Assembly: GCF_000023965.1 (NCBI RefSeq)
Contig: NC_013201.1
Coordinates: 30,001-62,000 of the forward strand
DNA from: Halomicrobium mukohataei DSM 12286
GTDB taxonomy: Archaea > Halobacteriota > Halobacteria > Halobacteriales > Haloarculaceae
Reading direction: 5' to 3'
Length of the DNA stretch: 32,000 bases
Shown piece by piece: positions 1 through 31,805 of this stretch. The notes beneath the pieces were generated by a model. The model saw only the letters and a program-made list of their open reading frames with translations. It ran no database searches and was not told the origin of the DNA. Within the stretch, counting starts at the first letter, position 1; each line of letters starts with the position of its first letter. The position numbers and the translations under genes are program-made.

Positions 1-1857
1 ACGGCGGTGCCGATACGGGTGTTCCAGGGCGAACACGAAACCGCCACACGGAACGAGTTGCTCGCCGAGTTCGTACTGACCGACGTGCCGCCGACCTCGG
101 CCGGGACGCCGGCGATCGAGGTCACGGTGAGCATCGACGAGAACCGGTGGATCAACGTCGAGGCAGACCACGACGGCGACAGTGAAGCGATCACGATCGA
201 TCCCGCGACGGAGCGATCGCTGCGGGATGGAACGAGACGCCAGTCCGAGCAGGAACGGCCCGCACCCCGACTGGTTACCACTCGGGACGAAGACGAGGCG
301 ACGGCATCCGACGAAAGCCCGGAGACGAGCGCCGCGAGGGATCTGGAGACGCTGATCGACGAGGCCCTCGACGTACGCAACCAGCTCCATCGTGGCGTCC
401 TCTACTGTCGCCGGTCGATCGACAACGAGGTGGCGGATCTCCGCGACAACCTCGAAAAGACGACCCGAAACATCGAGTCGATCGTCGGGACGAACACGGA
501 GAGCGCGGACAAACGCGACGAGGACGGCGAGGAGGTGGGCGACCGGCTCGTCGGCGAGCTGGCGGCCGTCGAGGACTCGCTGCGGGCACTGCTCGACGAG
601 GACACGTCGACGGGGCTGGCGTTCGACGACCTCGAAGCGCTGGTCGACCGGATCGACCGCGGGCTCGAAGCGGCGGGACTCGTGCTCGTCGATCCCGACG
701 GCGGGGCCGAGACGGACCCGTACCGCCATCGAGTGGTCTCCTCAACAGAGAGCTCCGTCCCGGAGGGGCGAATCGTCTCCGTCCAGCAGATCGGATACGA
801 GCGCGACGGTGCGGTGTGCCGGGAGGCGACGGTGGTCGTCAGCGCCGGTTCTCCAGCGGAACGTGTCACAGCGGCCACGGGGCAGACCGATCCCGACCGG
901 TCGGGCGATACACTCGATCGAGCGATCAGAGACGCACGCGCCCCGGCCGTCGAGCAGTTCCCGAGCCCACCACGACGGTCGGTGAGCTACGAGGACTTCG
1001 AGATCAGCGCGACGCTGGGAACCGGCGGCCAGGCAGTCGTGTACGAGACGACCCACCCGGCGATCGAGTCGCCGGCCCGGATCGCGCTAAAAGAACCGGC
1101 TCGCGGCGAGCGGACCCTGACACACGACGCGATCAGTTCGTTTCTACAGCGGGCACAGACGTGGCGGACCGTCGACGACCGCGAGCGAGAGAGTCGCCGG
1201 TGGCGCTCCCACGAGTACATCGTCGGCGTCGTCGACGTCGGGGACACCCGACCGTGGATCGCCATGGAGTACATGGACGGCGGTGACCTCGCCGAGCGAC
1301 TCGACGGCACCGAGGGGCTGCCGGTCGAGGAGGCCGTGTGGATCGGACAGTGTCTCTGCCGCGCGCTCGAAGTCGCACACGAGTACGGGATCGCCCACCT
1401 GGACATCAAGCCGGGGAACGTCCTCTTCACCGAAACGACACCGTCACGCTGGGACCTGCCGAAGCTCGCCGACTGGGGCCTCGCGAGAAAGCTGCTGGAC
1501 CGAGCCGACTCGATGGAAGGCTTCTCCCGACACTTCGCCGCGCCCGAACAGTTCGACGCCGAGACCTTCGGCGAACCGGACGCCGTCACGGACATCTACC
1601 AGGTCGGCGCTGTGCTGTACGCGATGCTACGCGGCGAGCCACCCGTGAGCGGCGGCCGCCTCGCCGTCCGCAAGCGAATCGTCCGCGACGACGGGCCACC
1701 GCCAGCCCCGAGTGCCGATCGTGACGACGTGCCGCCCGAACTCGACGAGATCGTACGCACGGCGCTGGCGACGGCAAAACGGGATCGGTACGAATCGATC
1801 CGGTATCTGCGAGACGATCTGGAAGCCCTGTGGAAGTCGCCGGACGATACCGTCTAG
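1..1857 (+). CDS. Hsp70 substrate-binding domain / GrpE-like domain / Hanks-type Ser/Thr protein kinase fusion (5' end cut by window edge)
   Basis: The frame is open from nt 1 to TAG 1855-1857. nt 1-201 read RVFQGEHETATRNELLAEFVLTDVPPTSAGTPAIEVTVSIDENRWINVEADHDGDSEAITI, which follows the DnaK SBD-beta signature. nt 546-849 read LAAVEDSLRALL...LVLVDPDGGAETDPYRHRVV...GRIVSVQQIGYERDGAVCREATVVVS, which follows the GrpE C-terminal signature. nt 988-1830 carry kinase motifs GTGGQAVVY, IALKEP, HLDIKPGNVLF, ADWGLAR and APEQ. Confidence 0.85.
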   Translation, partial: TAVPIRVFQGEHETATRNELLAEFVLTDVPPTSAGTPAIEVTVSIDENRWINVEADHDGDSEAITIDPATERSLRDGTRRQSEQERPAPRLVTTRDEDEATASDESPETSAARDLETLIDEALDVRNQLHRGVLYCRRSIDNEVADLRDNLEKTTRNIESIVGTNTESADKRDEDGEEVGDRLVGELAAVEDSLRALLDEDTSTGLAFDDLEALVDRIDRGLEAAGLVLVDPDGGAETDPYRHRVVSSTESSVPEGRIVSVQQIGYERDGAVCREATVVVSAGSPAERVTAATGQTDPDRSGDTLDRAIRDARAPAVEQFPSPPRRSVSYEDFEISATLGTGGQAVVYETTHPAIESPARIALKEPARGERTLTHDAISSFLQRAQTWRTVDDRERESRRWRSHEYIVGVVDVGDTRPWIAMEYMDGGDLAERLDGTEGLPVEEAVWIGQCLCRALEVAHEYGIAHLDIKPGNVLFTETTPSRWDLPKLADWGLARKLLDRADSMEGFSRHFAAPEQFDAETFGEPDAVTDIYQVGAVLYAMLRGEPPVSGGRLAVRKRIVRDDGPPPAPSADRDDVPPELDEIVRTALATAKRDRYESIRYLRDDLEALWKSPDDTV

Positions 1858-4849
1858 CTTCGATCTCAGTTTGCCGTCTGAAACCAGTCCGGCGACGATT
1901 CGTCTCGTCGAGGCTTCTTGCTTCAATCCCACAAGGGTCCGTCTGAAACTCCGAGACGTGTTCCCTCTCTAGCTGTGCATCTTCCGCTTCAATCCCACAA
2001 GGGTCCGTCTGAAACCAGATCTAAAACAATGTCATACGGAAAAATCGACATCGCTTCAATCCCATAAGGGTCCGTCTAAAACGATCCGGAATATGAAGTG
2101 ACGAACGATCCGGATACGGGCTTCAATCCCACAAGGGTCCGTCTGAAACTCGACGAGATCGGCGCGAACTCGTTCGCTGATACTGCTTCAATCCCACAAG
2201 GGTCCGTCTGAAACTCGGGGACCGAGACGACGGGGCCGGGTGCTGTCTGCTTCAATCCCACAAGGGTCCGTCTGAAACCCGGAGGGGCCGCTGCGTGGGT
2301 GATCTGGAGAGAAGAGCTTCAATCCCACAAGGGTCCGTCTGAAACGTTGCGTGAGCTAGCGAAACACCGAGTCCGTGTGATGCTTCAATCCCACAAGGGT
2401 CCGTCTGAAACACGGAAATCCAGCCGATCACCCTCCGAGAGGAGAGGGCTTCAATCCCACAAGGGTCCGTCTGAAACCGGACATTCAGAAGCGCCTGACT
2501 AACCGCATGGCTGCTTCAATCCCACAAGGGTCCGTCTGAAACCGGGAAGACCACGACCGCCCGCGCCCTCCAGTTCGAGCTTCAATCCCACAACGGTCCG
2601 TCTGAAACGGCTTCTACGTCGGCAACCGGACCGAGGACGGCGATGGGCTTCAATCCCACAAGGGTCCGTCTGAAACAAGTACGCCTCGATCATCAACGGC
2701 GTCCGGGCTGTGCTTCAATCCCACAAGGGTCCGTCTGAAACGATGCTGTTGAGCTCGTAGCGATCCCACTCGGCGTGCTTCAATCCCACAAGGGTCCGTC
2801 TGAAACAGCCCTTGTGCAATGATCGGGAGTGCAATCCGACCGCTTCAATCCCACAAGGGTCCGTCTGAAACTCAGGCGAGTTGTCGGACGAACAGCTTGA
2901 AGCGTGTGCTTCAATCCCACAAGGGTCCGTCTGAAACTCGTCGAGCGGCAGGCCGCCGACCGCTACGGGCTGGCTTCAATCCCACAAGGGTCCGTCTGAA
3001 ACCGACACGGTCGAAGATGCTGGCAGCTCGCGAATCGCGCTTCAATCCCACAAGGGTCCGTCTGAAACGGATCTCGACGGCCGCGTGGCCGTGCATCTCG
3101 GGGTCGCTTCAATCCCACAAGGGTCCGTCTGAAACAACGCTTCAACGCGCTCTATTGACCGAGCGTATCGGCTTCAATCCCACAAGGGTCCGTCTGAAAC
3201 AGATCTCGCGGATAAGCTGCCCCCGCCCTCCCATGAGGCTTCAATCCCACAAGGGTCCGTCTGAAACCACTTCGAGCGGACTTTGGGCCACCCCGGAAAG
3301 TCAGGCTTCAATCCCACAAGGGTCCGTCTGAAACCGATACGTCCGGGACGCCCGTGACGACCACCACTGCGCTTCAATCCCACAAGGGTCCGTCTGAAAC
3401 GGAGGAGCGGATGGACATGAGCGACACGACGATCCGGCTTCAATCCCACAAGGGTCCGTCTGAAACGAGCATCTCTCCAATCAGCGGTCATCAACCGCGA
3501 GCTTCAATCCCACAAGGGTCCGTCTGAAACAGTATCTGTCTACGCGATACCGCACCGTCAGAGTGGCTTCAATCCCACAAGGGTCCGTCTGAAACTACGA
3601 CCTTCCCACTGAGGGTCTTGAGCTAACGATTGCTTCAATCCCACAAGGGTCCGTCTGAAACGCGACGTGCTTACCTCTGACGCCAATATTGACCTTGCTT
3701 CAATCCCACAAGGGTCCGTCTGAAACTTCATCAAGAGGCACACAAGCATGGTGCGTCCAAAGCTTCAATCCCACAAGGGTCCGTCTGAAACCTGGCCTAC
3801 CCGAGTCGGTTCCCCGCAGCACTCGCAGCTTCAATCCCACAAGGGTCCGTCTGAAACACGATCGTCACCGACACCCTCGGGGCCGGCGGCGCGCTTCAAT
3901 CCCACAAGGGTCCGTCTGAAACGAAACGACCGAGACGCAAAGCGAGTTCACACAACTCGCTTCAATCCCACAAGGGTCCGTCTGAAACTTAGATGATCAG
4001 GTAGCCTGCTACCAGTGCAGCTGCGCTTCAATCCCACAAGGGTCCGTCTGAAACGAGACCCAGCTTTGCCTTCCAGGTGATCAGCTCGTAGCTTCAATCC
4101 CACAAGGGTCCGTCTGAAACTCGAAGCGCTCGGTCGCGACGGAGACCAGCGACCAGCTGGCTTCAATCCCACAAGGGTCCGTCTGAAACTGACGACCACA
4201 CACACGAGGCCGTGCGTGTGCTTGTAGCTTCAATCCCACAAGGGTCCGTCTGAAACCCACGTCCCGGTGACACGCAGCTCGGTGAGATCGCGCTTCAATC
4301 CCACAAGGGTCCGTCTGAAACCATGGAGTCTTCAACATTTCATGGGCTGGGCTTGGCCGCTTCAATCCCACAAGGGTCCGTCTGAAACCGCAACCCGACG
4401 ATCGAGGACGGGCCGTCCCTGGAGCTTCAATCCCACAAGGGTCCGTCTGAAACGCGTCGGACTGCGTCGATAGTGTTCGTGCTCATGTTGCTTCAATCCC
4501 ACAAGGGTCCGTCTGAAACCAGACTTCTACTGGAAGGCGAAAACTGAGAAGGCAGCTTCAATCCCACAAGGGTCCGTCTGAAACTACGCTCGACGACCTC
4601 CGTCGTGCGCTCCAGAAGTCAGCTTCAATCCCACAAGGGTCCGTCTGAAACGCGCTGCGGACGTGGTGTCAGAGGGGTTACCAGTAACTGCTTCAATCCC
4701 ACAAGGGTCCGTCTGAAACACTCCGGGTACACTGGTGGCGATGCTCTACTCGCCGCTTCAATCCCACAAGGGTCCGTCTGAAACACACGTTTCTTTTTTT
4801 CAGGAGCCATCACTCACTCGCTTCAATCCCACAAGGGTCCGTCTGAAAC
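1857..4849 (-). CRISPR. CRISPR array, 45 full 30-nt repeats plus one degenerate terminal repeat; haloarchaeal type I-B-like repeat
   Basis: The plus-strand repeat is GCTTCAATCCCACAAGGGTCCGTCTGAAAC (first copy 1920-1949, last 4820-4849). All spacers look unique and are 34-39 nt long. A degenerate 28-nt copy, GCTTCGATCTCAGTTTGCCGTCTGAAAC, lies at 1857-1884. Variant repeats sit at 2053-2082 (2 changes) and 2579-2608 (1 change), so decay clusters at the left end, which is therefore the trailer. The reverse complement GTTTCAGACGGACCCTTGTGGGATTGAAGC is the transcribed orientation of Haloferax-type I-B repeats (ATTGAAGC handle), so the array is on the minus strand. Confidence 0.98.
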
Positions 4850-5032: not shown

Positions 5033-6079
5033 TCGCTCTTATGTAGAACTGCGGAAAGCCCCGATAGCGAGGCAGTCAATCATTGACTCGGTGGGTTCCC
5101 CAGCTAGAGTGAGTAACCGAACGATGCCGAAGGTGTGAGCGGCCTGCTCCAAGCCCTGCTTGGACAGGCCGCGGAACTTCCGCAGCCACGGCTGGACGAG
5201 CGAAAACAGCACTCAGCCTGGTTAATATGGACGCCGTCGAGCGATACATACCGCTCTTTGTGCACGACTGTCCGATGGTCACGCTCCATCTCTCGATAGG
5301 CTTGGAGTCCATCAGTCCAGACCTCTCCCAGCGGCTGGGAGAGGTCTTCAGCCTCCTGAATGACTGGTTCAAGATCACCGCTGTAGTCGATACCACGTTG
5401 ACCGCGGATCACGCGAAGCGAGTCGCGGCACGCCGCGACGAGCGTCAGCTGATCACCGTGGCGTCCCCACCAGCGTGGTCGGCCAGTCTGGGACGAGCCG
5501 CCGCGAGAACGGCTGTTCCGCGGCGGCTCTTGGCCTTTATACCCGGGAAAGACCTCACCAGATTCGTCGGCTTGCGTCGGTCCGTCAATGGTCTGGTCGA
5601 GCAGTTCCCAAACCACGGGAAGCCGCGCTGAACCGCGGCTTCCACCTCTCGAATCGCTGTGTGAACCGTTTTGTAGGCCCGCCCGAACAACGGCGCGATC
5701 TGGTTGATGCTGAGCAACGTATCGGCATAGAGTGTAAACGCGAGAAGTACCTCGCCGCAGGTGAGATGCTTCTCGTGAAACGGAGTTTCGTAGGTGTAGA
5801 CTGGCTTGAAGTTGCAGTCTCGGCACCACACGCGGTCGAGATGGGGCCACGTTTGGATGGCAGTGTGCCCGCACCGTGGACAGGACATATTTTTTCCAGA
5901 ACTCCTTGAGTCGCTGCTCGATGCGGGCATCGAGCGGCTCCGTGTCGAACTCGACGACGCCCAGCTCGATCAGCTCTCGAAACATCCCGCCGAACGCCGG
6001 CTGAGCAGAAGATATACTCCCCAATTATGGCTGGCTCAGTGTAACTATACGGCCTTTCCGTAGCTCTACATAAGAGCGA
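5033..6079 (-). mobile_element. IS1595-family (ISH4-like) insertion sequence, decayed copy
   Basis: Perfect 15-bp terminal inverted repeats TCGCTCTTATGTAGA lie at 5033-5047 and, as reverse complement, at 6065-6079. Inside are a zinc-ribbon (CPRCGHTAIQ...WCRDCNFKP) and DDE-domain pieces (VWTDGLQAY...HINQAE). No matching flanking direct repeat is present (CGACCGTC on the left, CGCACACA on the right). Confidence 0.8.
5039..5985 (-). pseudogene. IS1595-family transposase, disrupted by about 3 frameshifts
   Basis: The coding sense jumps between all three minus frames. Segment 1 is MFRELIELGVVEFDTEPLDARIEQRLKEFWKK, ending at an A6 run near 5891-5896. Segment 2 is NMSCPRCGH...AVQRGFP, ending at a C run. 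Segment 3 is VVWELLDQTIDGPTQ...TDGLQAYREMERDHRTVVHKERYVSLDGVHINQAE, ending near 5205-5215. Segment 4 is LFSLVQPWLRKFRGLSKQGLEQAAHTFGIVRLLTLAGEPTESMIDCLAIGAFRSST, with its stop at 5039-5041. I translated the last segment by hand; it is not in the ORF track. Confidence 0.75.
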
Positions 6080-6602: not shown

Positions 6603-6854
6603 ATGAGCAGCGACAGAATCGACGCCGAAAGCAAGGTATCTGGAAATCAGGCAAACATCCCCGCCCGGATTCGACGTGAACTCGATATCGACGACGGTGA
6701 TCAGCTCCGCTGGCAGCTTGAAAGTGATGGGAGTATCCGGGTCGAAGTCATCCAACAGCAGACGGGCACGTTCACCGATTTCGACGGCTACGCTGGTGAA
6801 AATGCAACCGATGTGACCAACGATCACGACGCCTGGGGCGTCAACGTCGAGTAA
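6603..6854 (+). CDS. vapB: AbrB/SpoVT-family antitoxin (VapB-like)
   Basis: The sequence SKVSGNQANIPARIRRELDIDDGDQLRWQLESDGSIRVEV looks like a swapped-hairpin AbrB/MazE fold. The TAA stop abuts the ATG of the PIN-domain gene (TAAATG at 6852-6857). The internal ATG at 6603 is preferred over the ORF-track start at 6555. Confidence 0.8.
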   Translation: MSSDRIDAESKVSGNQANIPARIRRELDIDDGDQLRWQLESDGSIRVEVIQQQTGTFTDFDGYAGENATDVTNDHDAWGVNVE

Positions 6855-7289
6855 ATGCCCCGCGCACTCATCGATACGTCAGTCCTGTTTGCAGCCGCGT
6901 ACAAGCGAGATAATTCACACGACGGCGCACTTCCAGTGCTCCAGGGCATCGATACTGGAACGCTTCCTGAGGCAGTCGTCCTCGACTACGTTCTCGCCGA
7001 AACGCTGAACGGCCTCACGACACACGCCGGCCACGACGCAGCGGTCGATCTCCTTGATCGCATCGAAGAAAACGCCCGCTTCCACATCGACACACTCACC
7101 ATCGATGCCCTCGCGACAGGAAAGTCCCTCTTTCGCCAACACGAACCCCTCTCCTTCGTCGATGCCTGTATTGTCGCGTATATGCAAACCGAGGGTCTCG
7201 GCTACCTGTATGCGTTTGATGACGATTTTGACGCTGTCGAGGACGTCTATCGGCTCGAAACAGCGACGAATCCCTACGATCCAAACTGA
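6855..7289 (+). CDS. vapC: PIN-domain ribonuclease toxin (VapC)
   Basis: The four PIN acidic positions are readable: LIDTSV, LAET, FVDA, FDDDF. The 144-aa size and coupling to an AbrB-type antitoxin fit VapC. Confidence 0.9.
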   Translation: MPRALIDTSVLFAAAYKRDNSHDGALPVLQGIDTGTLPEAVVLDYVLAETLNGLTTHAGHDAAVDLLDRIEENARFHIDTLTIDALATGKSLFRQHEPLSFVDACIVAYMQTEGLGYLYAFDDDFDAVEDVYRLETATNPYDPN

Positions 7290-9318: not shown

Positions 9319-10662
9319 TCACCCCTCGAAGAAGTCCTCGATCTGAGCGTTGACGACGGACTGGATCAGTGACTCGTCCTGCTCGACCTCTTCGAGTCGG
9401 ATGTCCGAGCGCAGCGTTTCGGCGACGACCTCTGGATCGTCGACGAACGTGTACTCTTTGTGGACGCCGCTGCCGTAGCCACGGCCCCGTTTCTCCGAGG
9501 TGACGAAGTTGTAGGTCTCGGCCTCGCCCATGTACCGGAGGTAGGAGTCTCGAGACTTCTCGTCCGTGTCCAGAAGCTCCGTGAGATACTGATAGACGCG
9601 GTAGGCGACCGTACTCGGGACGGCGTTGAGGTTGCGGTTCGAGTAGACCGGGACGATCGCCGTCGCGTACAGCGAGAGCTTCTTCTGGGAGGAGAGGCCC
9701 TGCATCTGGGTCAGCGTCCGGTCGCGTTCGGCCTCTTCCTGTGCGTCGCGAACGTGCTGTTCGTGGACCGTGTCGTCGCCGGCACGGTCCGCGATCTCGC
9801 CTGCCGTCCGGAACAGGTCGATCGCTTTCCGCGCGTCGCCGTGATCCTGTGCCGCGAAGGCAGCACTGAGCGGGATGATCCCGTCTTCGAGGACTCCCTC
9901 CTGGAACGCGTCGCGTCGGCGTTCCAGGATCGCCTGCAGCTGGTTGGCGTCGTAGTCCGAAAACACCACGTCCTGAGGGTTGAACGAGCTCTCGGCACGA
10001 CCGTCGAGTTCCTCCATGAAGCGCGGATCGTTCGTGAGGGCGGCGACCGAGACGTGCTGGTCGATCCGGCCCAGCTGAGAGGCCCGGGACAGCTGATACA
10101 GGAGTTTCGAGTACGCCGGTTCGTCGTTTGGATCCCGCTGGCGACCGACGAGCAGGTCGACCTCGTCGAGGATGATGATGACCGACTCGAAGTGTTCACT
10201 CAGAATGTCGTAGAAACGGTTGAGCTTCTGGCTCGTGGAGACCCCGCTCTGTGGGACGCCGACCTCGACGCCCGCTTTCGCCGCGGCGTTTTCCACGAGC
10301 TGGTAGACGGCTCGATCGTGTGATTTGAGCGTCTGGCAGTTGATTTCGACGACGCCGAAGTCGATGTCCTGGCTGTTTGCCAGTTCGATCACCTGCTGGC
10401 AGACGGCGTTGATGATCAGGGACTTGCCGGTCCCAGACGGGCCGTAGAGTAGCATATTCGGCGGGCGGTTGCCCTGCAGCGCCGGCCGGAGATACGTGAT
10501 GATGTCTTCGAGCTGTTCGTCGCGACCGACGATGCGGTCCTCGTCGATAACGGCGTCCGGATCGAGGAGACCCTTGTCCCTGAAAACGGAGTCCTGGACG
10601 CCCTCCTGAAGTCGTCCCTTGATAGACTGGGACAGTGACTGCTGGTCGTCGCCGTCACCCAT
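9319..10662 (-). CDS. orc1: Orc1/Cdc6 replication initiator
   Basis: Walker A LLYGPSGTGKS, Walker B VIIILDEVD, an AAA+ lid and a C-terminal winged-helix region are readable. I prefer the start MGDGDDQQ at 10662, which lies 26 nt downstream of a TATA-like element. The ORF-track start is 10689. Confidence 0.95.
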   Translation of the reverse strand: MGDGDDQQSLSQSIKGRLQEGVQDSVFRDKGLLDPDAVIDEDRIVGRDEQLEDIITYLRPALQGNRPPNMLLYGPSGTGKSLIINAVCQQVIELANSQDIDFGVVEINCQTLKSHDRAVYQLVENAAAKAGVEVGVPQSGVSTSQKLNRFYDILSEHFESVIIILDEVDLLVGRQRDPNDEPAYSKLLYQLSRASQLGRIDQHVSVAALTNDPRFMEELDGRAESSFNPQDVVFSDYDANQLQAILERRRDAFQEGVLEDGIIPLSAAFAAQDHGDARKAIDLFRTAGEIADRAGDDTVHEQHVRDAQEEAERDRTLTQMQGLSSQKKLSLYATAIVPVYSNRNLNAVPSTVAYRVYQYLTELLDTDEKSRDSYLRYMGEAETYNFVTSEKRGRGYGSGVHKEYTFVDDPEVVAETLRSDIRLEEVEQDESLIQSVVNAQIEDFFEG

Positions 10663-10687
10663 GATACCGTGATATAATCCACATCGC

Positions 10688-10695
10688 AAATAAAG
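10688..10695 (-). promoter_or_regulatory. Candidate TATA box for orc1
   Basis: The minus strand reads CTTTATTT, 26-33 nt upstream of the ATG at 10662. That spacing fits a leaderless haloarchaeal transcript. Confidence 0.4.
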
Positions 10696-10865: not shown

Positions 10866-10882
10866 AGATGAGAGGACACGGA

Positions 10883-11160
10883 CCCCGTGTGCGAGATGAA
10901 ACGAGAATCCGGAAACCACGACGACTGTGAAGATCGAGGGAACACCGTTTCAGCGGGTTCGGATTGCGTCCCGATTCGGACGACGTGCGGACCCACACAC
11001 CCCGTGTGCGAAATGAAATGCAGACGAACGGAAAGGTACTGGTAGAGAGTCGAGTTCCGACGGCGGTCGGGATCCGTCGCCCCCACACCCCGTGTGCGAA
11101 GTGAATCGCCGTGGAGAACAGAATGGGGAAGTTGACCCCCACACCCCGTGTGCGAGATGA
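10883..11160 (+). repeat. Four ORB-like repeats upstream of orc1
   Basis: CCCCGTGTGCGA[AG][AG]TGA occurs at 10883-10899, 11000-11016, 11088-11104 and 11144-11160. Most copies are preceded by a CACAC or C-rich extension (a G-string on the other strand). Confidence 0.75.
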
Positions 11161-11239
11161 AATCGGCAAAGAAGGAGAGTCCCCTTCCAGCCGGAGTCAG
11201 TGACGGATATCGTCGCAGTGGTCGAGGAGCCGCGTTAGA

Positions 11240-11490
11240 GGTCTATAAAGACGTATCTAGGGATGGCTGACGATCGATAGGTTACTGCAGTCGTTTTAGA
11301 TCGTCGGTATATGTTATGTGTATTTTATCTAAGCTATCTAGACTATCTAGCATATTTTCATTCTCTTTCTCAGTTCTTCTTGCAGTACGGCTTTGGTTTT
11401 TCCTTCTTAGTAATAAGTATTCCTATTGTACTAGCTTATTTTCTATTTTGGTCTTTCAGACTCTCTCTTTGCTGAAAACATCGATATTGG
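11240..11490. other. AT-rich candidate duplex-unwinding element of a replication origin
   Basis: This is the only strongly AT-rich stretch in the window (for example TATATGTTATGTGTATTTTATCTAAGCTATCTAGACTATCTAGCATATTTTCA). It is bracketed by ORB copies of opposite orientation at 11144-11160 (+) and 11552-11568 (-). Confidence 0.6.
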
Positions 11491-11551
11491 CTGCTTCCTG
11501 TCTCAGCTCGCCCGCTCTCCCTAGCACCCCACCCCCACTCTCTCACCGATT

Positions 11552-11568
11552 TCATATCGCACACGGGG
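11552..11568 (-). repeat. Inverted ORB-like repeat closing the origin
   Basis: The plus strand reads TCATATCGCACACGGGG, the reverse complement of CCCCGTGTGCGATATGA. It is followed by TGAGGGGGT. Confidence 0.7.
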
Positions 11569-11577
11569 TGAGGGGGT

Positions 11578-11650
11578 TCACCCACTCACTCACCCACTCA
11601 CTCACCCACTCACTCACCCACTCACTCACCTACTTACTCGCTCACCCACT
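11578..11650. repeat. 12-bp tandem repeat (CCCACTCACTCA)n
   Basis: Four perfect copies span 11581-11628. A degenerate fifth copy (CCTACTTACTCG) and a partial sixth follow. The repeat lies between the origin and the stop of the HEAT-kinase gene. Confidence 0.95.
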
Positions 11651-24804: not shown

Positions 24805-26049
24805 TCACAGCAGGAACGCGAAGACCGGATACGAGGCGGCGATCGCCAGCGACGGGGTCAACAGCCACATCGTCACGATCCGCTTCGCTGCGCCCGGATC
24901 GAAGAGGCTCCGCTCGTCGAGATCCGCGGGGCCCTCCGCGCCCACGTCTGGCACGTCCGGCACCTCTTCGGGCTTCTCCGCGGGCTCTTCCTCGCGGGCG
25001 ATATCCCCGATGGTCGGACCGGTGGGTGCCTCCTCGACGCGCGAGGTGACCAGCGCGCCCGTCGTGACCTCCAGATCCGGGCGCTCGGGGGTCGGCGTCG
25101 CCAGCTGCTTCAACGTCGCGGCTCGACTCGCCCGCCCCCAGCCCAGCCCGATGATCGTCGAGGTCGTACTGACCGCGAGACTCGCGGGGATCCCGAAGTA
25201 AGACAGCACCGTGATCACCGAGGCACCGACCACGGAGACGATCAGCGACGCGAGAATCGGCAGCTCCGTGATGTCGTCGCCGACCGTCTCCAGGGTCCGC
25301 CGAGCGATGGTGAAACTCCCCAGCCCGAAGGCCGCCACCGCGAGCAAGACGCCCTGGTTGACGGTCAGCGATCCACCCTCTCCGACCAGCGGGGCCACGG
25401 CGTTGGCCGCGTTCGACGCGCCCGCCGAGAACGCCATGTAGCAGGCGATCACGATCACCAGGAGCGAGCCGACGATGTCCTGTGGCGACGCGTTCACGTT
25501 CAGATACGGACGCGGGATCGTTCCCGAGCGGTCGAGCTGGACGAAGTGGAGGTCGAACTTCGTGAACGCGACGTAGCGGTCGAGATGCGGGTAGACGTAC
25601 CGTCCGACGACGACGCCGATGACGAAGCACAGAAGCGGCGCGACGATCCACGCCGAGACGATCACGAACATGAGCGCCTGGTTGAGGGTGCCGGAGGCCA
25701 GGCCCAGCCCGACGATCGCGCCGACGGCCGTCATCGAGGTCGAGGCCGAGACGCCGTAGAGATTCGAGATCAACAGCGACGCGCCCGTAAAGAACAGCAC
25801 CGCGACGCTCGCGACGGGCGTGAACTGGGCCGCCGGCACGATACTGCTGCTCATCGTCGCGATGACGTTTCGCCCGACCGTCCAGGCACCCAGGAAGCCG
25901 AACGCGACGAACAGCGCACCCGCTGTCGTCTTCCGTACGAGGCGTGAGCCGACCGCCGGGCCGAACGCCACCCCCGTCGACGAGCCGCCGATGTTGAACC
26001 CCACGAACACGGCGACGACGATACCGACGATGGCTACGGTTCCGAGCAT
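24805..26049 (-). CDS. pitA: PiT-family inorganic phosphate transporter
   Basis: PiT signature repeats GFNIGGSSTGVAFGPAVGS and FSAGASNAANAVAPLVG are present. The protein is multi-pass hydrophobic with an acidic loop near the C-terminus. I prefer the start MLGTVAIVG at 26049; the ORF-track start is 26148. Confidence 0.9.
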   Translation of the reverse strand: MLGTVAIVGIVVAVFVGFNIGGSSTGVAFGPAVGSRLVRKTTAGALFVAFGFLGAWTVGRNVIATMSSSIVPAAQFTPVASVAVLFFTGASLLISNLYGVSASTSMTAVGAIVGLGLASGTLNQALMFVIVSAWIVAPLLCFVIGVVVGRYVYPHLDRYVAFTKFDLHFVQLDRSGTIPRPYLNVNASPQDIVGSLLVIVIACYMAFSAGASNAANAVAPLVGEGGSLTVNQGVLLAVAAFGLGSFTIARRTLETVGDDITELPILASLIVSVVGASVITVLSYFGIPASLAVSTTSTIIGLGWGRASRAATLKQLATPTPERPDLEVTTGALVTSRVEEAPTGPTIGDIAREEEPAEKPEEVPDVPDVGAEGPADLDERSLFDPGAAKRIVTMWLLTPSLAIAASYPVFAFLL

Positions 26050-26215
26050 TCTGTCTCTCCCGATACTGCCGTCTGGCCGCGCATAAAACGATTCGGTATC
26101 TCTGGAGCCGCCCGGCTCGAAGCGAGTATAGCCAACGGTATGAATCACCGTCGCCCGGCACCCATATAACTCCTGCCGACCGCTCCGAGCCGATGTCGCC
26201 CGAGCGTCGCCGCTC

Positions 26216-28261
26216 TCAGATCACCCTGTTCTGGAGCCGATCCCTGTGTTTGGCGTTGTACAGGAGCTTGACCCGGTCCGACGCGGGCGTCCCGATGCAG
26301 GTGAGGACCACGTCCTCCTGTTCGACCTCCTCGTCGGAGAGGATCTGTTGCAGCTCCATGTCGATCTCGCCTTCGACGACGACGGCCGCGCAGTTCGTAC
26401 ACGCCCCGGCACGACAGGAGGAGGGCCAATCGAGCCCCGCCGCCTCGGCGGCCTCGAGGACGTATTCGTCTCGCTCGACCTCGATCGTCCCGTAGTCCTC
26501 CGGCGGAAGATCGCTCGTGGCGGCCCGCGTGAACGCCTCTCCGTCTCGTGGGTCCCACCCTCGATCTGCGACGACTTCGTCGTTCAGGTACTCGACGGTC
26601 GCCGTCCGCGAGGACGACGCGGTCGAACCCCGGTCGCTCGATCGCTCCACTGCACCCCGCGAGCCCGTGAGGTGGTAGCCGCCGTTGGGGTCCGAGCGAT
26701 ACGCCACCCGGCCGTCGTCTTTCAGGTCGTCGAGGGCGTCGAGGACGGCTCCACGGCTCGCGTCGAGCGCTCGGCCCAACTCGGCGCTCGAAACCGGCGT
26801 GGTGCCCCGTCGCGATCGGTCCCTGATCGCCTCGTACACCGCCTCGGCCCCGATGCTCGACGCTCTGTGCTGGGACCCGCCGGTCTCTCGATCGCCGCTC
26901 TGGTCGGCCCTCGACACGTCGACCTCGGTCCCCCTCGCGCGCTCGACCCCGCGCCGGGTCGGCCTGTAGCCGGAGGGTCCGTCGGAGGTGTACTCGACCA
27001 GGTTCGCCTGCTTGAGTTCGTCGAGCCGATCCAGCACCGACTGTCGCCCGGCCTCGACGTGCTCTGCTATCGTCTCGCTGGACACCGTCCGCTCCCCGCT
27101 GTCGGTGAGTTCGTCGACGACTGCGAGCAGATACTCCGTCGATACGGTGTCTGTCGGTTCTGCTTGGTGCTCTGCCGTCTGCTCGTTCCGTCCCGAGTCG
27201 CTCGTCTGCTGGGTGTGGCTGTGCTGTGATTCGCTGGACTGCCCGGCCTCGTGGCGCACTCTCTCGCCGGCATCGACCGGGTCGTCGACCCGCTCTGCGA
27301 TGATCGTCGGCAGCCGTCCACCGCTCCGGACGGCGCGTAGCGCTCGCTCGAACAACTGGACGCTCTCGTATCGCGACCGCTTCTCGGTCTCCAGTGCCGT
27401 CAGCACGACCGCGTCGATGGCCTCGGTCACGTCGTCGCGGTAGTCGCTGGGCGGCGTCGGCGGGTCTCCGTAGACGATGTCGTGCATGATCCCGGTCTGA
27501 CTCCCGGTGTAGGGCGGTTCGCCGGTGAGCAGCGCGTAGACGATCGCACCGGCCTGATACACGTCCGTCAGCGTGTCGGGATCGCCGAACTCGTCGGACT
27601 CGAACTGTTCGGGCGCGGCGTACGCCACCGACAGTCCGTCCATCGTTCCGGTCTGCTCCGAGAGGACCCGAGACAGCCCCCAGTCGCCGATCTTGGGGAG
27701 GTCCCACGTCCCGGCGGCCGTCTCGCGAAAGAGGACGTTCGCCGGTTTGAGATCGAGGTGAACGATCCCGTAGGCGTGGGCGACGGCCAGGCCCCGGCAG
27801 AGACATTCGCCGATCCAGAGCGCGTGGGTCAGTTCCAGTCCGCCGTCGCTCGCGTCGAGGCGATCGGCGAGCGTGCCACCGCCCATGTACTCGATGGCGA
27901 TCCAGGGCAGCCGGTCGCCGATGTCGACGACGCCGACGATGTGGTCCGAATCCGTCCAGCGCTGCTTGTTCCGTTCCCGACCGTCGACCGTCTCCCAGCG
28001 CTTGGCTTCGCTGAGAAACCGTTCGATCGCGTCGCCGGTGAGCGTCCCGGCTCGGGGTGGCTCCTTGAGTGCGATTCTGTCCGGTGGCTCCTCGTCGGTG
28101 ACCCGTCCCTCGTACACGACGGCCTGTCCCCCTCGACCGATCGGCTCGTCGCTGGTCTCGATGTGCTCGTATCGCAGCGATCGACGCGGGGGACTGGTGA
28201 CAGCTTCGATGTCGGGTGGGTTCCGATCGCTCATCGTCTCTGCTGTCTGGCCGGATCTCAT
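26216..28261 (-). CDS. Ser/Thr kinase / two winged-helix domains / full-length halophile-type [2Fe-2S] ferredoxin fusion
   Basis: The kinase spans about 27360-28200 ([38 protein letters not shown]). wHTH-like segments lie at about 26950-27140 and 26664-26840. The ferredoxin at 26219-26602 reads [16 protein letters not shown]...[82 protein letters not shown]. This is near-collinear with my recollection of the Halobacterium ferredoxin, including its N-terminal extension. Confidence 0.9.
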
Positions 28262-28347: not shown

Positions 28348-29004
28348 ATGCGTGCAACGATCCGTGCGGCCGATCCCGAGTCGACGGCGTCTCTCTCCGT
28401 CACAGACGAGTCGGCTGTACGCGTCTACCGCGTCCCCGAGCGCGGAGAGGCGGTCGTCGCCGACAAGGACGGGTCCGTCACCTCGCTGGGCGTCCACGAC
28501 ATCTCCGTGTCCCGCGAGTTCGACGACGACGGCGAGCCCGGATACATCGAGTTCTACAAGGAGGACAGCCAGCTGTACGTCCAGGACGCGGGTTCGAGCA
28601 GCGAGACGGTACAGCAAAACGCCTTCGGCGAGATCGACCTCTCCGACGGCGAGCCCTCGCTGATCACCGGCGACTGTACGGTACAGATCGGCTACAGTAC
28701 GGCACTCGAAGTCGAGGTCGAGCAGTCCCGTGGGAACGACCGTCCGATCCCGTACAAGGCCGACCTCGTGCTCAAGATCTGCGATGTCAGGTCGACCAAC
28801 GAGGTCAAGAGCGAACTGCGAGAGCTCAAAGAGATGATGCACGCGGCCGACATCTCGGACGAGCGGTACCGCAACGTCCTCGCCGACGTGGAGACGGCCT
28901 TCGAAAACGTCGAGAACACGAGAGGCGACGAGCTACCGACCGAGGCCGTCCAGAAAGTCTCCAGTGCGACCAAACGGGCTCGCAACTACTTCCTCAGTTC
29001 CTGA
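28348..29004 (+). CDS. Hypothetical protein: divergent FHA-like beta-sandwich plus helical C-terminal half
   Basis: Spacing is FHA-like: ISVSREF corresponds to VSR.HA, LYVQDAGSSSETV to the D.GS.NGT region, and LITGDCTVQIG to L..GD.I.IG. The canonical GR and the His and Asn are not conserved. ATG 28348 is preferred over TTG 28324. Confidence 0.6.
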   Translation: MRATIRAADPESTASLSVTDESAVRVYRVPERGEAVVADKDGSVTSLGVHDISVSREFDDDGEPGYIEFYKEDSQLYVQDAGSSSETVQQNAFGEIDLSDGEPSLITGDCTVQIGYSTALEVEVEQSRGNDRPIPYKADLVLKICDVRSTNEVKSELRELKEMMHAADISDERYRNVLADVETAFENVENTRGDELPTEAVQKVSSATKRARNYFLSS

Positions 29005-29161: not shown

Positions 29162-30400
29162 TCACGCCCCGGAGCCAAACTCCCGATCCCACTCGTCGAA
29201 GCGCCGCACGCTCTCCTCGGAGAGCGAGGCCGAGGTGCGTTCGAACGCCACCTGCACGTCCTGTGGCCGGACGGCGTCGACCGAGAGGTCGTACTCTCTG
29301 ACGGCGTCGAAGCCACGGTCGGCGACGGACGCCAGTCCCGTGTTCGACCGGTTGATCATGGCGTTGACCGCGGTCCGACACACCGCCTCCACGTCACTGC
29401 CGGTGAAATCGCGGTGGATACACTCGCTTGCGATCGCCTCGACGGGCGTGTCGACGCGTCGACCAGTGTCCGACAGCTGGAACGCCGATGGACTCCCCTC
29501 GAAGGTAATCCCGCCTTCGACGGTGTTGATCGCGACGATCTCCTCGGCCGCGCCCACGTCGGGCAGCGGGATCAGCACCCGTCGCGGGAAGCGACGACGG
29601 ATCGCCTGATCGAGGTCCCACGGGGTGTTTGTCGAGCCCAGGACCATCACGAAACTATCGTCGTTCTTGTCGATCCCGTCCAGCTCCGACAGCAGCGTGT
29701 TCAACACGCGGCGAGACGTTTCGTCCAGGTCGGACTCGCGTGACTGTGTCAGCGCGTCGATCTCGTCGAGGAAGACGATACTCGGGCTCATCTCCTCGGC
29801 GAGATCGAACAGCGCGGTGATCTGCTTGCTCGTCTCGCCGAAGTACTTCGAGAGCAGCCCTCCGAGCTTGACGTCGAAGAACGTCGCGTCGAGCGAGCCG
29901 GCGACCGCAGACGCCAGCAGCGTCTTCCCGGTTCCCGGCGGGCCGAACAGGAGGACGCGATCGGTCGCGGCGACGGCGTCGGGCTTGTCGTCGATGCCGC
30001 CCAGCGTGATCGTCCGCTTCAACTCGCCTTTGACCTCGTCGAGGCCCCCGATGTCGTCCCACGTGACCTCCGTCTGGGAGATGAACGATTCGACTTGCTC
30101 ACGAAAGTCCGACTCCGGCTGTTCGGCGTCCTCTGCCCCGCCGTCGCGGTTCTCGCCGATGTCCTCTTCGGAGAGGGCCTCGCCGCTCTTTAGCTTCGAG
30201 ATCGACGACTCCAGTTGCTCTTTGCGGTCCGGATACGTCGTTTCCCGGATCGTTTCGAGCTCTTCCAACCGATCGAGAGACTGTGAGAACGCTTTCGCGG
30301 CCTTCTCGTGGTTCTCCTGATCGAGGTGTGACTTCCCCTTCTTGAGGTACTCTTCGTACTGTTCCTGTAGGATGTCCTCTTTGTACTGTCCGAGATCCAT
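29162..30400 (-). CDS. Vps4/CdvC-like AAA ATPase with an N-terminal MIT-like helical domain
   Basis: The N-terminal segment (YEEYLKKGKSHLDQENHEKAAKAFSQSLDRLEEL) looks like a three-helix MIT domain. Walker A is LLFGPPGTGKT and Walker B is IVFLDEIDAL. STNTPWDLDQAIRRRF is typical of the meiotic/Vps4 clade. The C-terminal SEESVRRFDEWDREFG resembles the Vps4 C-terminal helix. Confidence 0.85.
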   Translation of the reverse strand: MDLGQYKEDILQEQYEEYLKKGKSHLDQENHEKAAKAFSQSLDRLEELETIRETTYPDRKEQLESSISKLKSGEALSEEDIGENRDGGAEDAEQPESDFREQVESFISQTEVTWDDIGGLDEVKGELKRTITLGGIDDKPDAVAATDRVLLFGPPGTGKTLLASAVAGSLDATFFDVKLGGLLSKYFGETSKQITALFDLAEEMSPSIVFLDEIDALTQSRESDLDETSRRVLNTLLSELDGIDKNDDSFVMVLGSTNTPWDLDQAIRRRFPRRVLIPLPDVGAAEEIVAINTVEGGITFEGSPSAFQLSDTGRRVDTPVEAIASECIHRDFTGSDVEAVCRTAVNAMINRSNTGLASVADRGFDAVREYDLSVDAVRPQDVQVAFERTSASLSEESVRRFDEWDREFGSGA

Positions 30401-30436: not shown

Positions 30437-31081
30437 TTAGCGGCCCAGCTCCTCGTTGAAGATGTTCTCACTCTCGTCTTCTTCTTTCGTGAGCTCGCTC
30501 AGCGAGACCGGGTCCTCGTTGGCGTCCTGGAACAGCGTGTCGATCTCCGACTCCTCCATCGTCGCCCCGAAGTCCTGCGAGACGCTGGTGAGGGTCCGGT
30601 TGAGCTGATCGCCCTTGCGCTGGATCCACTCCGTGTCCTTGTTGCGCTTCTCGATCTCGCGGACGATGTCGTTCATGAACTCCTGTACGTCTTCCTCGCT
30701 CATGTCCCGGAGCGACGACTGGGGCTGCTCTTCGAGCCGCTTCTTGGCGTTTTTGGCAGCCAGCAGGGTGGTGTACTCTTCCAGCATCTCCTGCCACGCG
30801 GCTTCCTTGTTCTCGTAGTCCCGCTTGAGCTGCTTGGCCTTTCGCTTCAGTCGCTCTTTTTTAGGTCCGGCGACCTTTCGCCCCTTCTCGACCAGTTGCT
30901 CGAACTGGTGATCGAGCCGTTCGAGCTCCTGTTCTTTCAGCTCGATCTGCGTCTCGAAGGTTCGTGCTTCGAGGTCGAGTTCGTCGGCGTCTTTCTCCAT
31001 GAGTTCGTTCGAACTGCCGCCCCAGCTACCTGGTATCCAGTCTCTGAACTGAACCATATACGAGTACATGGTAGGCACCAT
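30437..31081 (-). CDS. Snf7/ESCRT-III-superfamily-like coiled-coil protein
   Basis: A basic helical hairpin (KKERLKRKAKQLKRDYENKEAAWQEMLEEYTTLLAAKNAKKRLE) is followed by an acidic helical tail (MSEEDVQEFMNDIVREIEKRNKD...EIDTLFQDANE). This polarity is typical of Snf7. A TATA-like TTTTATTA abuts the first ATG, so the true start may be MVQFRDW at 31057. Confidence 0.6.
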   Translation of the reverse strand: MVPTMYSYMVQFRDWIPGSWGGSSNELMEKDADELDLEARTFETQIELKEQELERLDHQFEQLVEKGRKVAGPKKERLKRKAKQLKRDYENKEAAWQEMLEEYTTLLAAKNAKKRLEEQPQSSLRDMSEEDVQEFMNDIVREIEKRNKDTEWIQRKGDQLNRTLTSVSQDFGATMEESEIDTLFQDANEDPVSLSELTKEEDESENIFNEELGR

Positions 31082-31136
31082 AATAAAACTTTGGCACTAA
31101 ACCCACTCTACTGGATCTCCATATTGGAGAAAGCTG

Positions 31137-31805
31137 CTACGAAAACTCGACGGTCTCGTCGTCGCCGTCTTCGCTCAGTACGTCGGATTCCGTTTCGATG
31201 TTCCCCACCTCTGTGGGCTCTTCGCTCACTTCTTCGTCGGTCTCGGATGTGTCGTCGCTCCACTCCTCTTCGAGTTCGGAGCCGGTGTGGAGCTGGCTCG
31301 CGCCCTCACTGAACGAGTCCAGTGCGTTCGAAGAGAGCGTATCCGTCTGACCGAGCACGTCGTGTAGCTCCTCGTTTTTCATCTCCTCTTGCTGGAACAG
31401 TCGGACCAGTTCGCTCTGGTCCATCTCCCGGAGCTGGCTCCAGTAGTCGTCGCCCCGGCTCTCGCCGATCTCCTTGATGTTCGCCAGGTTCGAGGCCAGA
31501 TTCCGCTGTTTGCTCGTCTCGTCGATCCGCCCTCTTACGGTTTCGAGCTCTTCTTTGATCTCTTCTGCGTCGCGAAGGAAGTCCTGTGCTCGCTCTTCGT
31601 TACCGGCTTCCTTCGCCGACTCGTACTTCGAGCGCTTGTCATCGAGCGCTTCTTTCAGCTCCTCTCGGCGACTCTTGAGATCGTCTAGCTTCCGTTCGGC
31701 TTCCTGTCGCTTGACCTGATGGTCCTCCTTCGGACGATCGAGCAGGTGGCCGTCGTCACTGTCGCCAAACAGTGAGCCGAACCACGACTTCACGGTAGCA
31801 AACAT
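31137..31805 (-). CDS. Snf7/ESCRT-III-superfamily-like coiled-coil protein (paralog-like)
   Basis: The N-terminus MFATVKSWFGSLFG resembles that of the neighbouring gene (VQFRDWIPGSWGG). A long charged coiled coil is followed by a very acidic tail. The gene is first in a same-strand three-gene cluster ending with the Vps4-like ATPase. Confidence 0.55.
   Translation of the reverse strand: MFATVKSWFGSLFGDSDDGHLLDRPKEDHQVKRQEAERKLDDLKSRREELKEALDDKRSKYESAKEAGNEERAQDFLRDAEEIKEELETVRGRIDETSKQRNLASNLANIKEIGESRGDDYWSQLREMDQSELVRLFQQEEMKNEELHDVLGQTDTLSSNALDSFSEGASQLHTGSELEEEWSDDTSETDEEVSEEPTEVGNIETESDVLSEDGDDETVEFS

Follow-up and report, generated by a model that had tools for sequence, protein, structure and literature searches.

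Among the archaeal ESCRT (endosomal sorting complex required for transport) systems, those of the Halo_FHA clade combine Vps4 and ESCRT-III genes with a gene of arCOG13166, whose product joins an FHA domain to a CdvA-like one (Makarova 2024 mBio, PMC10936438). Kinases and phosphatases occur in some Halo_FHA loci, and the FHA-CdvA fusion has been proposed to recognise phosphorylated cargo (PMC10936438). One such locus lies on plasmid NC_013201.1 of the haloarchaeon Halomicrobium mukohataei, and it is described here from a stretch of 32,000 nucleotides of that plasmid (the window), together with the rest of the replicon and related loci in other haloarchaea. The portion of the published tables that covers this locus lists the genes from MoxR through a kinase gene, here called K4 (WP_012807433, 681 aa in full, assigned to arCOG03682), to the FHA gene (WP_012807434, arCOG13166), the Vps4 gene (arCOG01307), both ESCRT-III genes and flanking genes, and flags the Vps4 gene along with that of arCOG13166, the defining gene of the clade (PMC10936438). 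By these published assignments, the signature genes of Halo_FHA systems (arCOG01307, arCOG07402 and arCOG13166), with Ser/Thr kinases and phosphatases nearby, are the same as those of the island. The association of ESCRT, FHA and kinase genes at this locus is already published. In that paper the kinases figure as occasional neighbours, and its neighbourhood table, in the part that covers the locus, begins at MoxR; the kinase battery is unexplored. In the literature searched, no account was found of this battery, of DnaK-GrpE-kinase or kinase-ferredoxin fusions, or of a conserved link to a MoxR-vWA-HEAT operon.

A second comparison is with the MoxR-vWA ternary conflict systems of multicellular bacteria, in which a MoxR gene adjoins the gene for a vWA protein with a metal ion-dependent adhesion site (MIDAS), a large third component is present, and HEAT, beta-propeller and kinase domains recur; HSP70-GrpE and kinase-PP2C-vWA themes are described in the same study (Kaur, Burroughs, Iyer and Aravind, eLife 2020, PMC7159879). 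The island shares the pairing, the large partner and these domains. It differs in being archaeal, in having a vWA protein without a fused beta-propeller, and in containing no VMAP, iSTAND or FtsH component; no effector or death-like domains were found in it. Its propeller sits on the upstream kinase K3, and not on the vWA protein as in the beta-propeller subsystem. Membership of that subsystem was rejected: the vWA protein lacks a propeller, the P-loop of MoxR (Walker A) reads GPPGVGKS rather than GXXXTAKS, and the bpMoxR profile (PF20030) scores 25.3 bits, under its cutoff of 27. The more general arrangement of a MoxR-vWA chaperone pair, an AAA_5 gene adjoining a MIDAS-bearing vWA gene, is present.

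In Sulfolobus, the ArnA/ArnB-ArnC/ArnD-PP2A set of Hanks kinase, phosphatase, FHA and vWA proteins regulates transcription of the archaellum. This module is not known to include ESCRT genes, a kinase battery or scaffold fusions. TerY-P and other triads of vWA, PP2C and Ser/Thr kinase genes, which Anantharaman, Iyer and Aravind are said to have described in 2012, reportedly bring three of the gene types found here together in one accessory locus. Here it is MoxR with which the vWA gene pairs, at a great distance from the PP2C gene.

Set against these systems, the locus is a much-extended example of a Halo_FHA ESCRT system with associated kinases. Its components are a battery of soluble Hanks-type kinases that all belong to a single Halobacteria-specific family (arCOG03682 type), a single PP2C phosphatase, an adaptor that joins an FHA domain to a Vps28/CdvA-like domain, two or three ESCRT-III proteins and a Vps4-like AAA ATPase; a MoxR-vWA-giant-HEAT operon is part of it in some lineages only. 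With a probability of roughly 0.55, we read the sequences as those of a conserved accessory supercluster, borne on haloarchaeal plasmids, in which the kinase battery and PP2C feed the FHA adaptor and the ESCRT machine. A sequence-only reading of the window had recognised four kinases interleaved with an AAA+/VWA/HEAT operon, an FHA-like gene and an ESCRT-like operon, and all of these are present, the ESCRT-III assignment being that of the Makarova supplement. The reading did not include the island's ~46 kb to the right, the truncation of K1 or the published ESCRT/FHA/kinase association.

The FHA domain of the adaptor is undetected by Pfam from sequence. In an AlphaFold2 (AF2) model (alignment of 13 sequences, predicted local distance difference test score (pLDDT) 85), residues 1-125 form a beta-sandwich for which Foldseek returns the FHA domains 1uht and ArnA 5a8i (TM 0.61-0.65 for these two) and 3un0; the ArnA domain, from S. 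acidocaldarius, is the second-best structural match. Ser55 and Arg56 of the adaptor are conserved residues. The C-terminal part is a four-helix bundle matched by the C-terminal domain of Vps28 (2j9w, TM 0.69). The adaptor family is rare, with 12 clusters at 90% identity and 67 at 50% identity among 1.84 billion representatives. The AAA ATPase carries the pore loop SKYFGETSK, which we take to resemble that of the Vps4/katanin/spastin clade, and scores 146 bits with the CdvC profile, under the cutoff of 650. Two coiled-coil ESCRT-III-like genes, a and b, lie directly upstream of the AAA gene in the same operon, and a shallow AF2 model of protein b, built from two sequences, contains a helical hairpin (residues 26-117).

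The four kinases of the window, K1 to K4, score 85-109 bits with Pfam Pkinase (PF00069) against a gathering cutoff of 31.7. The catalytic Lys, the HxD Asp, the Asn, the DW[GE] Asp and APE are present in all four. The alphaC Glu is found in K2, K3 and K4; K1 has Arg at this position and its orthologs P0136 and P0137 have Pro, so that Arg or Pro replaces the Glu throughout the K1 orthologs checked. The Gly loop is degenerate in K3 and in K8, a kinase to the right of the window, and both of these also have DWE. The motifs attributed to the four by the sequence-only reading (HIVGVVD, H.D.KP.N.LF, DWG, which is DWE in K3, APEQ and a C-terminal RY) are all present in the alignment, with small corrections: K4 has GDWG and not ADWG, K2 has EFM and not EYM, and only the RY of (K/R).RY is invariant.

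These motifs are not a hallmark of the island. A profile of the four kinase domains finds at least 702 relatives, and the named matches are all from Halobacteria. Among 128 aligned domains, DWG is present in 126 and DWE in 2, APEQ in 128, RY in 122 and the catalytic Lys in 127, and most have the non-RD motif HLD. DWG, APEQ, RY and non-RD HLD are therefore characters of a large family spread through the Halobacteria and not island-specific. In CK2alpha, DWG in place of DFG, described as unique to that kinase, works against the inactive DFG-out state and goes with constitutive activity (PMC9608649). CK2alpha has no specific sequence relationship to the family. The kinase profile matches best to bacterial PknB-type kinases, and DWG is therefore presumably convergent with that of CK2alpha.

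K1 to K4 are paralogs within a single family and share 41-54% identity. Each is fused to a different module, and the modules are largely as first described. The exception is K1, whose gene is cut by the edge of the window and had been taken to carry only a substrate-binding domain (SBD) with the GrpE-like part. The gene starts 1620 nt upstream (full gene NZ_CP039376.1 53800-57276, also in locus L002), and its 1158-aa product consists of a short extra SBD-beta-like segment, a complete Hsp70 nucleotide-binding domain (NBD) and SBD, a GrpE-like domain and the kinase. Pfam HSP70 (529 bits) covers both NBD and SBD. The NCBIfam DnaK equivalog scores 560 bits, under its cutoff of 648, and K1 is therefore a diverged DnaK paralog and not the housekeeping DnaK; the phosphate-1, phosphate-2 and adenosine motifs, read from the translation, are intact. 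The DnaK-GrpE-kinase architecture is represented by only 6 clusters (~1155 aa) among 5.8 billion proteins, with identity down to 45%.

In K2, the HEAT array is a homogenised repeat solenoid: Tandem Repeats Finder reports 12.5 tandem units of 111 nt (37 aa) at 12840-14221 with 68% matches, plus a 222-nt super-repeat. K2 and K3 are divergently transcribed from a 140-bp spacer. The small beta domains of K3 have a weak match to Pfam S1CSD-TOTE-1 (E = 0.0018). Its propeller had been read as a ligand input, a view that is not borne out: such PQQ domains are BamB-type propellers in soluble proteins and are therefore more likely protein-binding scaffolds. The ferredoxin of K4, which is complete (residues 555-681), passes the NCBIfam Frdxn_Halo equivalog at 178.3 bits against a cutoff of 150, with the four cluster cysteines present. 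K4 diverges from the FHA adaptor gene across an 86-bp spacer. At this position the RefSeq/PLSDB table of strain JP60 gives just a 145-aa 'ferredoxin Fer' (26216-26650), and the locus tag RS16160 is missing. The PGAP reading of K4 as a bare ferredoxin was rejected, the 681-aa open reading frame being uninterrupted and the fusion kept in a related metagenomic contig; the short annotation is probably an artefact.

The kinases extend well beyond the window. By tblastn, the plasmid holds 12 members of the family, all at record positions 53.8-132.9 kb, and no further family kinase was found by tblastn outside this interval. The island runs on for ~46 kb past the right edge of the window, with eight more kinases (K5-K12, Pkinase 86-118 bits) and the PP2C gene at 102.2 kb, which is the only annotated PP2C of the plasmid and lies inside the kinase arc. 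The supercluster in H. mukohataei is ~79 kb long and the window holds its left half. Across the plasmid, the attached modules are HEAT repeats (four kinases), PQQ propellers (three) and wHTH domains (two); one kinase is bare and one has a C-terminal peptide repeat. No membrane helix is predicted in any of the 12. The density of kinases within the window, to which weight had been given, is unremarkable (P = 0.08 for four in 32 kb given 12 on the plasmid). It is the arc on the whole plasmid that is significant: for 12 random points on a 222-kb circle to fall inside the observed 76-kb arc, P is ~9e-5 both analytically and by simulation.

A block of ~15 kb (NZ_CP039376.1 87.4-102 kb) parts the ESCRT operon from the PP2C/hyp689 block. 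It is an inserted molybdoenzyme operon, with TorD, NrfD, DsrO-like and molybdopterin oxidoreductase genes and small genes, and a third ESCRT-III paralog lies inside it at ~95.7 kb. Further partners kept across lineages are a 689-aa coiled-coil protein (hyp689), a 94-aa membrane protein (hyp94), a C-terminal fragment of a thermosome subunit (Cpn60_TCP1) and an Mrr_cat nuclease. Makarova and colleagues describe neither hyp689 nor the Mrr nuclease and thermosome-fragment partners, nor do they describe how the 15-kb insertion splits the system.

Conservation was followed by tblastn and contig comparisons. A single genome scan with two strict 10-residue patterns, in which H. katesii stood as the species representative, returned 39 haloarchaeal loci, which are a sample of the family and not a census; for several foreign loci (L013, L019) gene content comes from tblastn counts. 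One counterpart is a metagenomic contig of the European Nucleotide Archive (L063). Its gene order is kinase-PQQ (874 aa), MoxR (86% identity), vWA (75%), giant HEAT (1493 aa, 55%), a K4-like kinase (61%), FHA adaptor (73%), Vps4-like AAA (89%), two ESCRT-III genes (86% and 77%), PP2C (80%), hyp689 (82%), hyp180 (80%) and a K5-like kinase (80%). This is the order of the window without the phosphate transporter gene, joined directly to the PP2C block, so that the two parts separated by the insertion in H. mukohataei adjoin.

Content is likewise kept, in other arrangements, elsewhere. A 49.7-kb contig of the Joint Genome Institute (JGI; loci L060 and L066) carries the FHA adaptor, Vps4, two ESCRT-III genes, PP2C, hyp689 and kinase-PQQ, and in addition the Mrr-type nuclease (76%), a 1308-aa HEAT-kinase, a DnaK-GrpE-kinase (53%, the ortholog of K1), a K3 ortholog and a kinase fused to EF-Tu domains 2/3. 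The plasmid of Halarchaeum sp. CBA1220, which belongs to a different family, has a rearranged version with Vps4 (72%), FHA adaptor (58%), both ESCRT-III genes, PP2C (51%), hyp689 (65%), hyp94, Mrr nuclease (56%), a thermosome fragment and orthologs of K2, K3/K8, K5 and K10. Between these lineages, the Vps4-like AAA ATPase is 88-89% identical in L060 and L063 and 72% in Halarchaeum, and ESCRT-III-like protein a is 86% identical in L060 and L063 and 39% in Halarchaeum. Partial sets occur more widely. In Halobaculum saliterrae (L031), MoxR (74%) and vWA (44%) accompany four kinases; in Haloglomus irregulare, PP2C, hyp94, hyp180 and hyp689 accompany a HEAT-kinase; and in seven Halonotius loci a family kinase lies less than 10 kb from a match to the Vps4-like AAA ATPase, the kinase gene being ~750 bp downstream of the AAA gene in the one that was inspected (L042). 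In H. katesii, every copy from the two-motif scan falls in three island loci. The neighbouring genes, on whose conservation the sequence-only reading depended, have thus held up: MoxR, vWA, giant HEAT, the FHA adaptor, the Vps4-like AAA ATPase and the two ESCRT-III genes recur as partners in other lineages, and L063 has them in the order of the window. The Halarchaeum plasmid and the JGI contig keep the ESCRT, FHA, PP2C and kinase genes.

Two close relatives may be noted beside these. In H. katesii DSM 19301 (NZ_KB905378.1; L011, L041 and L032), a near-identical island is found within a 2.96-Mb scaffold at ~2.88-2.91 Mb and 1.60-1.62 Mb, and this presence in two places is either chromosomal integration or a scaffolding artefact. 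The island also occurs in Halomicrobium sp. LC1Hm, which hosts the nanohaloarchaeon Ca. Nanohalobium constans; there it is on plasmid NZ_CP044130.1, with 14 kinase matches and a Vps4 identity of 97.6%.

The sequence-only reading had left the relationship of the four kinases to be settled by phylogeny, and a tandem origin is not supported. The kinases of the window represent three subclades or more. K1 and K4 belong with K9 and K11, all of which have an insert in common; K2 is of the commonest type in the family; and K3 belongs with K8, the two having DWE and a loop insert in common. Recent tandem duplication was rejected on this basis and on that of orthologs elsewhere. K3 has a full-length ortholog in L066 (66%), and the K4 ortholog in L063 (661 aa) has the same architecture, its parts being conserved to different degrees (kinase 79%, wHTH 45-54%, Fer2 66%). 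HEAT-kinase counterparts of K2 are found in Halarchaeum (34% over 987 aa) and, in larger form, in L066 (the 1308-aa protein) and L034 (1322 aa). The same architecture in orthologs of K1, K3 and K4, together with these counterparts of K2, indicates that the fusions are old and stable and not fresh domain swaps. The earlier picture of a conserved core attached to swapped sensors survives in one respect, since between H. mukohataei and its metagenomic relatives the core ESCRT and PP2C genes are 77-89% identical and the scaffold-bearing proteins 53-66%, and fails in another, as the fusions were not recently exchanged. A further member of the family in the related metagenomic island, 843 aa long, is fused to domains 2 and 3 of EF-Tu/EF1A (L066 16889-19420).

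MoxR, vWA and giant HEAT form one operon, in which the start codon of vWA abuts the stop codon of MoxR (18402/18403). The vWA domain occupies residues 472-634 of 634, and its MIDAS is intact, with DRSGS at residue 476 and the Thr and Asp further downstream. In the 420-residue N-terminal region of the same protein there is an HExxH motif (HELGH) near residue 97; no Pfam match was obtained for this region, which may, from the motif, be a zincin-like peptidase domain. The position of the operon beside a propeller kinase, K3 in H. mukohataei, is kept in L063, where the kinase-PQQ gene is directly upstream of MoxR and the giant HEAT gene has the same place.

What the sequences show is the gene content, the domain architectures, the integrity of catalytic motifs, the FHA fold, and synteny and content kept across lineages; for what the parts do, they suggest the following scheme. 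The kinases would share a DWG and mostly HLD (non-RD) core held in a CK2alpha-like active lock; DWG, by comparison with CK2alpha, and non-RD HLD together suggest that members of the family are not switched by phosphorylation of the activation loop. Each kinase would be aimed by its fused module, whether HEAT solenoid, propeller with CSD-like domains, DnaK-GrpE or wHTH-ferredoxin, and would write phosphothreonine (pThr) marks, which the FHA domain of the adaptor is predicted to read and PP2C to erase. The Vps28/CdvA-like helical domain of the adaptor could then recruit ESCRT-III polymers, to be remodelled at the membrane by the Vps4-like ATPase. MoxR-vWA, with peptide binding through the MIDAS, and giant HEAT may act as an ATP-driven assembly or disassembly factor coupled to K3. 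The phospho-relay between kinases that had been proposed earlier is not part of this scheme; nothing in the data shows such a cascade. The wiring could serve either phospho-dependent cargo sorting or vesicle formation, as published, or a conflict system.

Several observations weigh against the reading of the locus as a kinase-fed ESCRT supercluster. In sequence searches the AAA ATPase matches the D2 domain of CDC48/VAT (PDB 2e-71, with NCBIfam in agreement) better than yeast Vps4 (4e-47). ESCRT-III-like proteins a and b have no significant Pfam or PDB sequence match, and the top Foldseek matches of protein b (CHMP2A/3, Snf7, CdvB2 and Vipp1) have E-values of 0.17-2. The Halarchaeum plasmid lacks MoxR and vWA, and this pair is therefore not core. 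Kinases that stand alone, with ESCRT genes missing from the 10 kb to each side, make up 24 of the 36 kinase loci outside Halomicrobium, and the family therefore also works outside the ESCRT system. Some members, namely the K1 orthologs without the alphaC Glu and K3 and K8, may by their motifs be weak kinases or pseudokinases. Finally, synteny inside a mobile island can partly reflect co-transfer and not function.

A different role for the same parts and wiring is unlikely on balance, although several observations speak for it. The locus could be a conflict or immunity system in which kinase-fused copies of abundant host proteins lure effectors of viruses or ectosymbionts, as baits or decoys. 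Once a bait was engaged, phosphorylation would follow, and with it a response driven by ESCRT and MoxR, for example membrane scission, expulsion or abortive infection. The candidate baits are DnaK with GrpE, the Fer ferredoxin, EF1A domains 2/3 and the CSD-like domains, with the thermosome fragment as a conserved neighbour. The distribution of the system is of the kind expected for such a role, being accessory, patchy and plasmid-borne, as is the rarity of the adaptor family with its 67 clusters. A CRISPR (clustered regularly interspaced short palindromic repeats) array, toxin-antitoxin pairs, TnpB and Fic genes lie around it, and the Mrr-type nuclease, at 56-76% identity, is a conserved member. 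The scaffold-bearing proteins diverge much faster than the core, and the K4 ferredoxin, which passes the housekeeping Fer equivalog cutoff, is yet only 66% identical between orthologs. The additional kinase fused to EF-Tu domains 2 and 3, the thematic analogy with bacterial MoxR-vWA ternary and HSP70-GrpE/kinase/PP2C/vWA conflict systems (PMC7159879), and the presence of the island in the nanohaloarchaeon host LC1Hm point the same way. On the other side, PADLOC returned for 10 island proteins only generic similarities to kinases (PD-T4-6, mad6, MkoA and PglW), AAA proteins (IetA and TRIP13) and a coiled-coil protein (LmuB), from which no defence system can be named. The island yielded no recognised toxic effector domain, the features by which the published MoxR-vWA subsystems are defined are absent, and the fusions are old and stable and not rapidly shuffled.

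By analogy, this role can be drawn more sharply, as an innate-immunity or anti-symbiont device in which always-on kinases with integrated host-protein baits would signal through pThr and the FHA adaptor to ESCRT-III/Vps4 and bring about pinch-off or expulsion. So specific a version is rather improbable; its baits would correspond to the decoys integrated in plant NLR receptors.

Housekeeping stress signalling, close to what the sequence-only reading had envisaged, is quite improbable. Here folding stress sensed by DnaK-GrpE, redox state by ferredoxin and small ligands by the PQQ propeller would be relayed to the remodelling ATPases. The domain content fits, and neither the DnaK NBD motifs nor the four ferredoxin cysteines are disrupted. 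A rare, patchy and plasmid-borne distribution argues against a general pathway, however, PQQ-type propellers in soluble proteins give no sign of cofactor or ligand sensing, and no cascade architecture is evident. The cell also has a separate canonical DnaK, standalone haloarchaeal DnaKs (~620-660 aa) matching the corresponding part of K1 at 47-56%. The reading of the locus as an accessory supercluster with a kinase-fed ESCRT machine remains the preferred one, and the idea that an abundant kinase family has merely piled up by chance on a plasmid among unrelated neighbours is highly improbable: the window density is indeed not significant, unrelated genes (CRISPR array, insertion sequence remnant, toxin-antitoxin pair, phosphate transporter and orc1) are interspersed and solo copies exist on other plasmids, such as the kinase-PQQ gene among mobile elements on a Halapricum plasmid, but order is kept in L063 and content in Halarchaeum and the JGI contig, K1, K3, K4, K5 and K10 have one-to-one orthologs, all 12 copies lie in one arc, and the conserved synteny and content exclude chance co-localisation.

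The features of the window and the further partner genes are collected in Table 1. The gene map is based on Pfam, NCBIfam and Rfam scans of the window, which matches exactly positions 55420-87419 of NZ_CP039376.1 (H. mukohataei strain JP60 plasmid unnamed1, circular, 221,861 bp); its proteins are those of the type-strain plasmid NC_013201.1.

Table 1. Features of the window and, below them, partner genes to its right. Positions are those of the window unless an accession is given.
Feature	Position	Strand	Basis or detail
K1, C-terminal 618 residues of 1158-aa DnaK(NBD+SBD)-GrpE-kinase	1-1857	+	Kinase domain ~1000-1788; Pfam HSP70, GrpE, Pkinase
CRISPR array, 45 repeats of 30 nt, 44 spacers	1920-4849	-	Rfam CRISPR-DR24
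IS1595-like remnant	5104-6024	-	
MazE/PIN pair	6603-7289	+	
orc1/cdc6	9319-10689	-	
K2, HEAT array with C-terminal kinase (~11678-12466)	11675-14500	-	HEAT_EZ 133 bits, Pkinase 109 bits
K3, N-terminal kinase (~14698-15540), two CSD/S1-like beta domains (~15631-16056), PQQ/BamB-type beta-propeller (~16201-17223)	14641-17226	+	Pfam
MoxR-type AAA+ ATPase	17476-18402	+	Pfam AAA_5 104 bits
vWA protein	18403-20307	+	Pfam VWA_2
Giant HEAT-repeat protein, 1485 aa	20311-24768	+	Pfam HEAT_2, HEAT
PHO4-family phosphate transporter (PitA in Makarova 2024)	24805-26148	-	
K4, kinase (~27317-28174), two winged helix-turn-helix (wHTH) domains (~26657-27151), Fer-type [2Fe-2S] ferredoxin (~26219-26605)	26216-28261	-	Pfam
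FHA adaptor (arCOG13166)	28348-29004	+	AF2 and Foldseek
Vps4-like classical AAA ATPase (arCOG01307, Halo_FHA clade)	29162-30400	-	Pfam AAA 138 bits
ESCRT-III/Snf7-like coiled-coil protein a (arCOG07402)	30437-31081	-	Assigned in Makarova supplement
ESCRT-III/Snf7-like coiled-coil protein b (arCOG07402)	31137-31805	-	Assigned in Makarova supplement
hyp689	NZ_CP039376.1 103075-105144		
94-aa membrane protein (hyp94)	NZ_CP039376.1 112849-113133		
Thermosome fragment	NZ_CP039376.1 117859-118695		
Mrr_cat nuclease	NZ_CP039376.1 120771-121811		

The CRISPR array, the insertion sequence remnant, the MazE-PIN pair and the phosphate transporter gene interrupt the kinase island. The repeat of the array is GTTTCAGACGGACCCTTGTGGGATTGAAGC, and its 44 spacers are 34-39 nt long. 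There are no cas genes within the window or in the PLSDB gene table of the plasmid, and the array appears to be an orphan on this replicon. The MazE antitoxin is 93% identical to a copy at one end of the Halarchaeum plasmid (NZ_CP054709.1 418810-419058, L010), far above the other genes common to both plasmids, which suggests a recent exchange of the toxin-antitoxin module.

Upstream of orc1/cdc6 there is an element of ~30 nt that resembles an origin recognition box (ORB), CCCCCACACCCCGTGTGCGAGATGAAAT, in four direct copies and one inverted copy (10873-11577), the inverted copy lying ~380 bp past the last direct one. The repeats are followed by a 12-nt microsatellite, TCACCCACTCAC, of ~6 copies at 11578-11649. 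The region 10873-11649 is probably the replication origin of the plasmid. A replication origin beside the kinases had been pointed out before, and orc1/cdc6 with ORB-like repeats is indeed there; like the CRISPR array and the phosphate transporter gene, however, it belongs to the plasmid context, and none of the three is found in the syntenic contig L063.

The locus bears on what ESCRT proteins do in Euryarchaeota that divide by means of FtsZ. It occurs in culturable organisms, H. mukohataei and strain LC1Hm, and in H. mukohataei an ESCRT module would be hard-wired to a signalling layer of 12 kinases, one PP2C and one FHA adaptor. LC1Hm is a natural system in which a symbiont-related role could be studied. 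Several of its proteins are unusual in their own right: the complete DnaK-GrpE-kinase chain, the kinase-ferredoxin fusion and the DWG family as a whole are of interest for kinase regulation and for chaperone biology. If the immunity reading were true, the locus would be the first in prokaryotes with a defence output based on ESCRT, and its function would be the first to be assigned to any ESCRT system of the Euryarchaeota.

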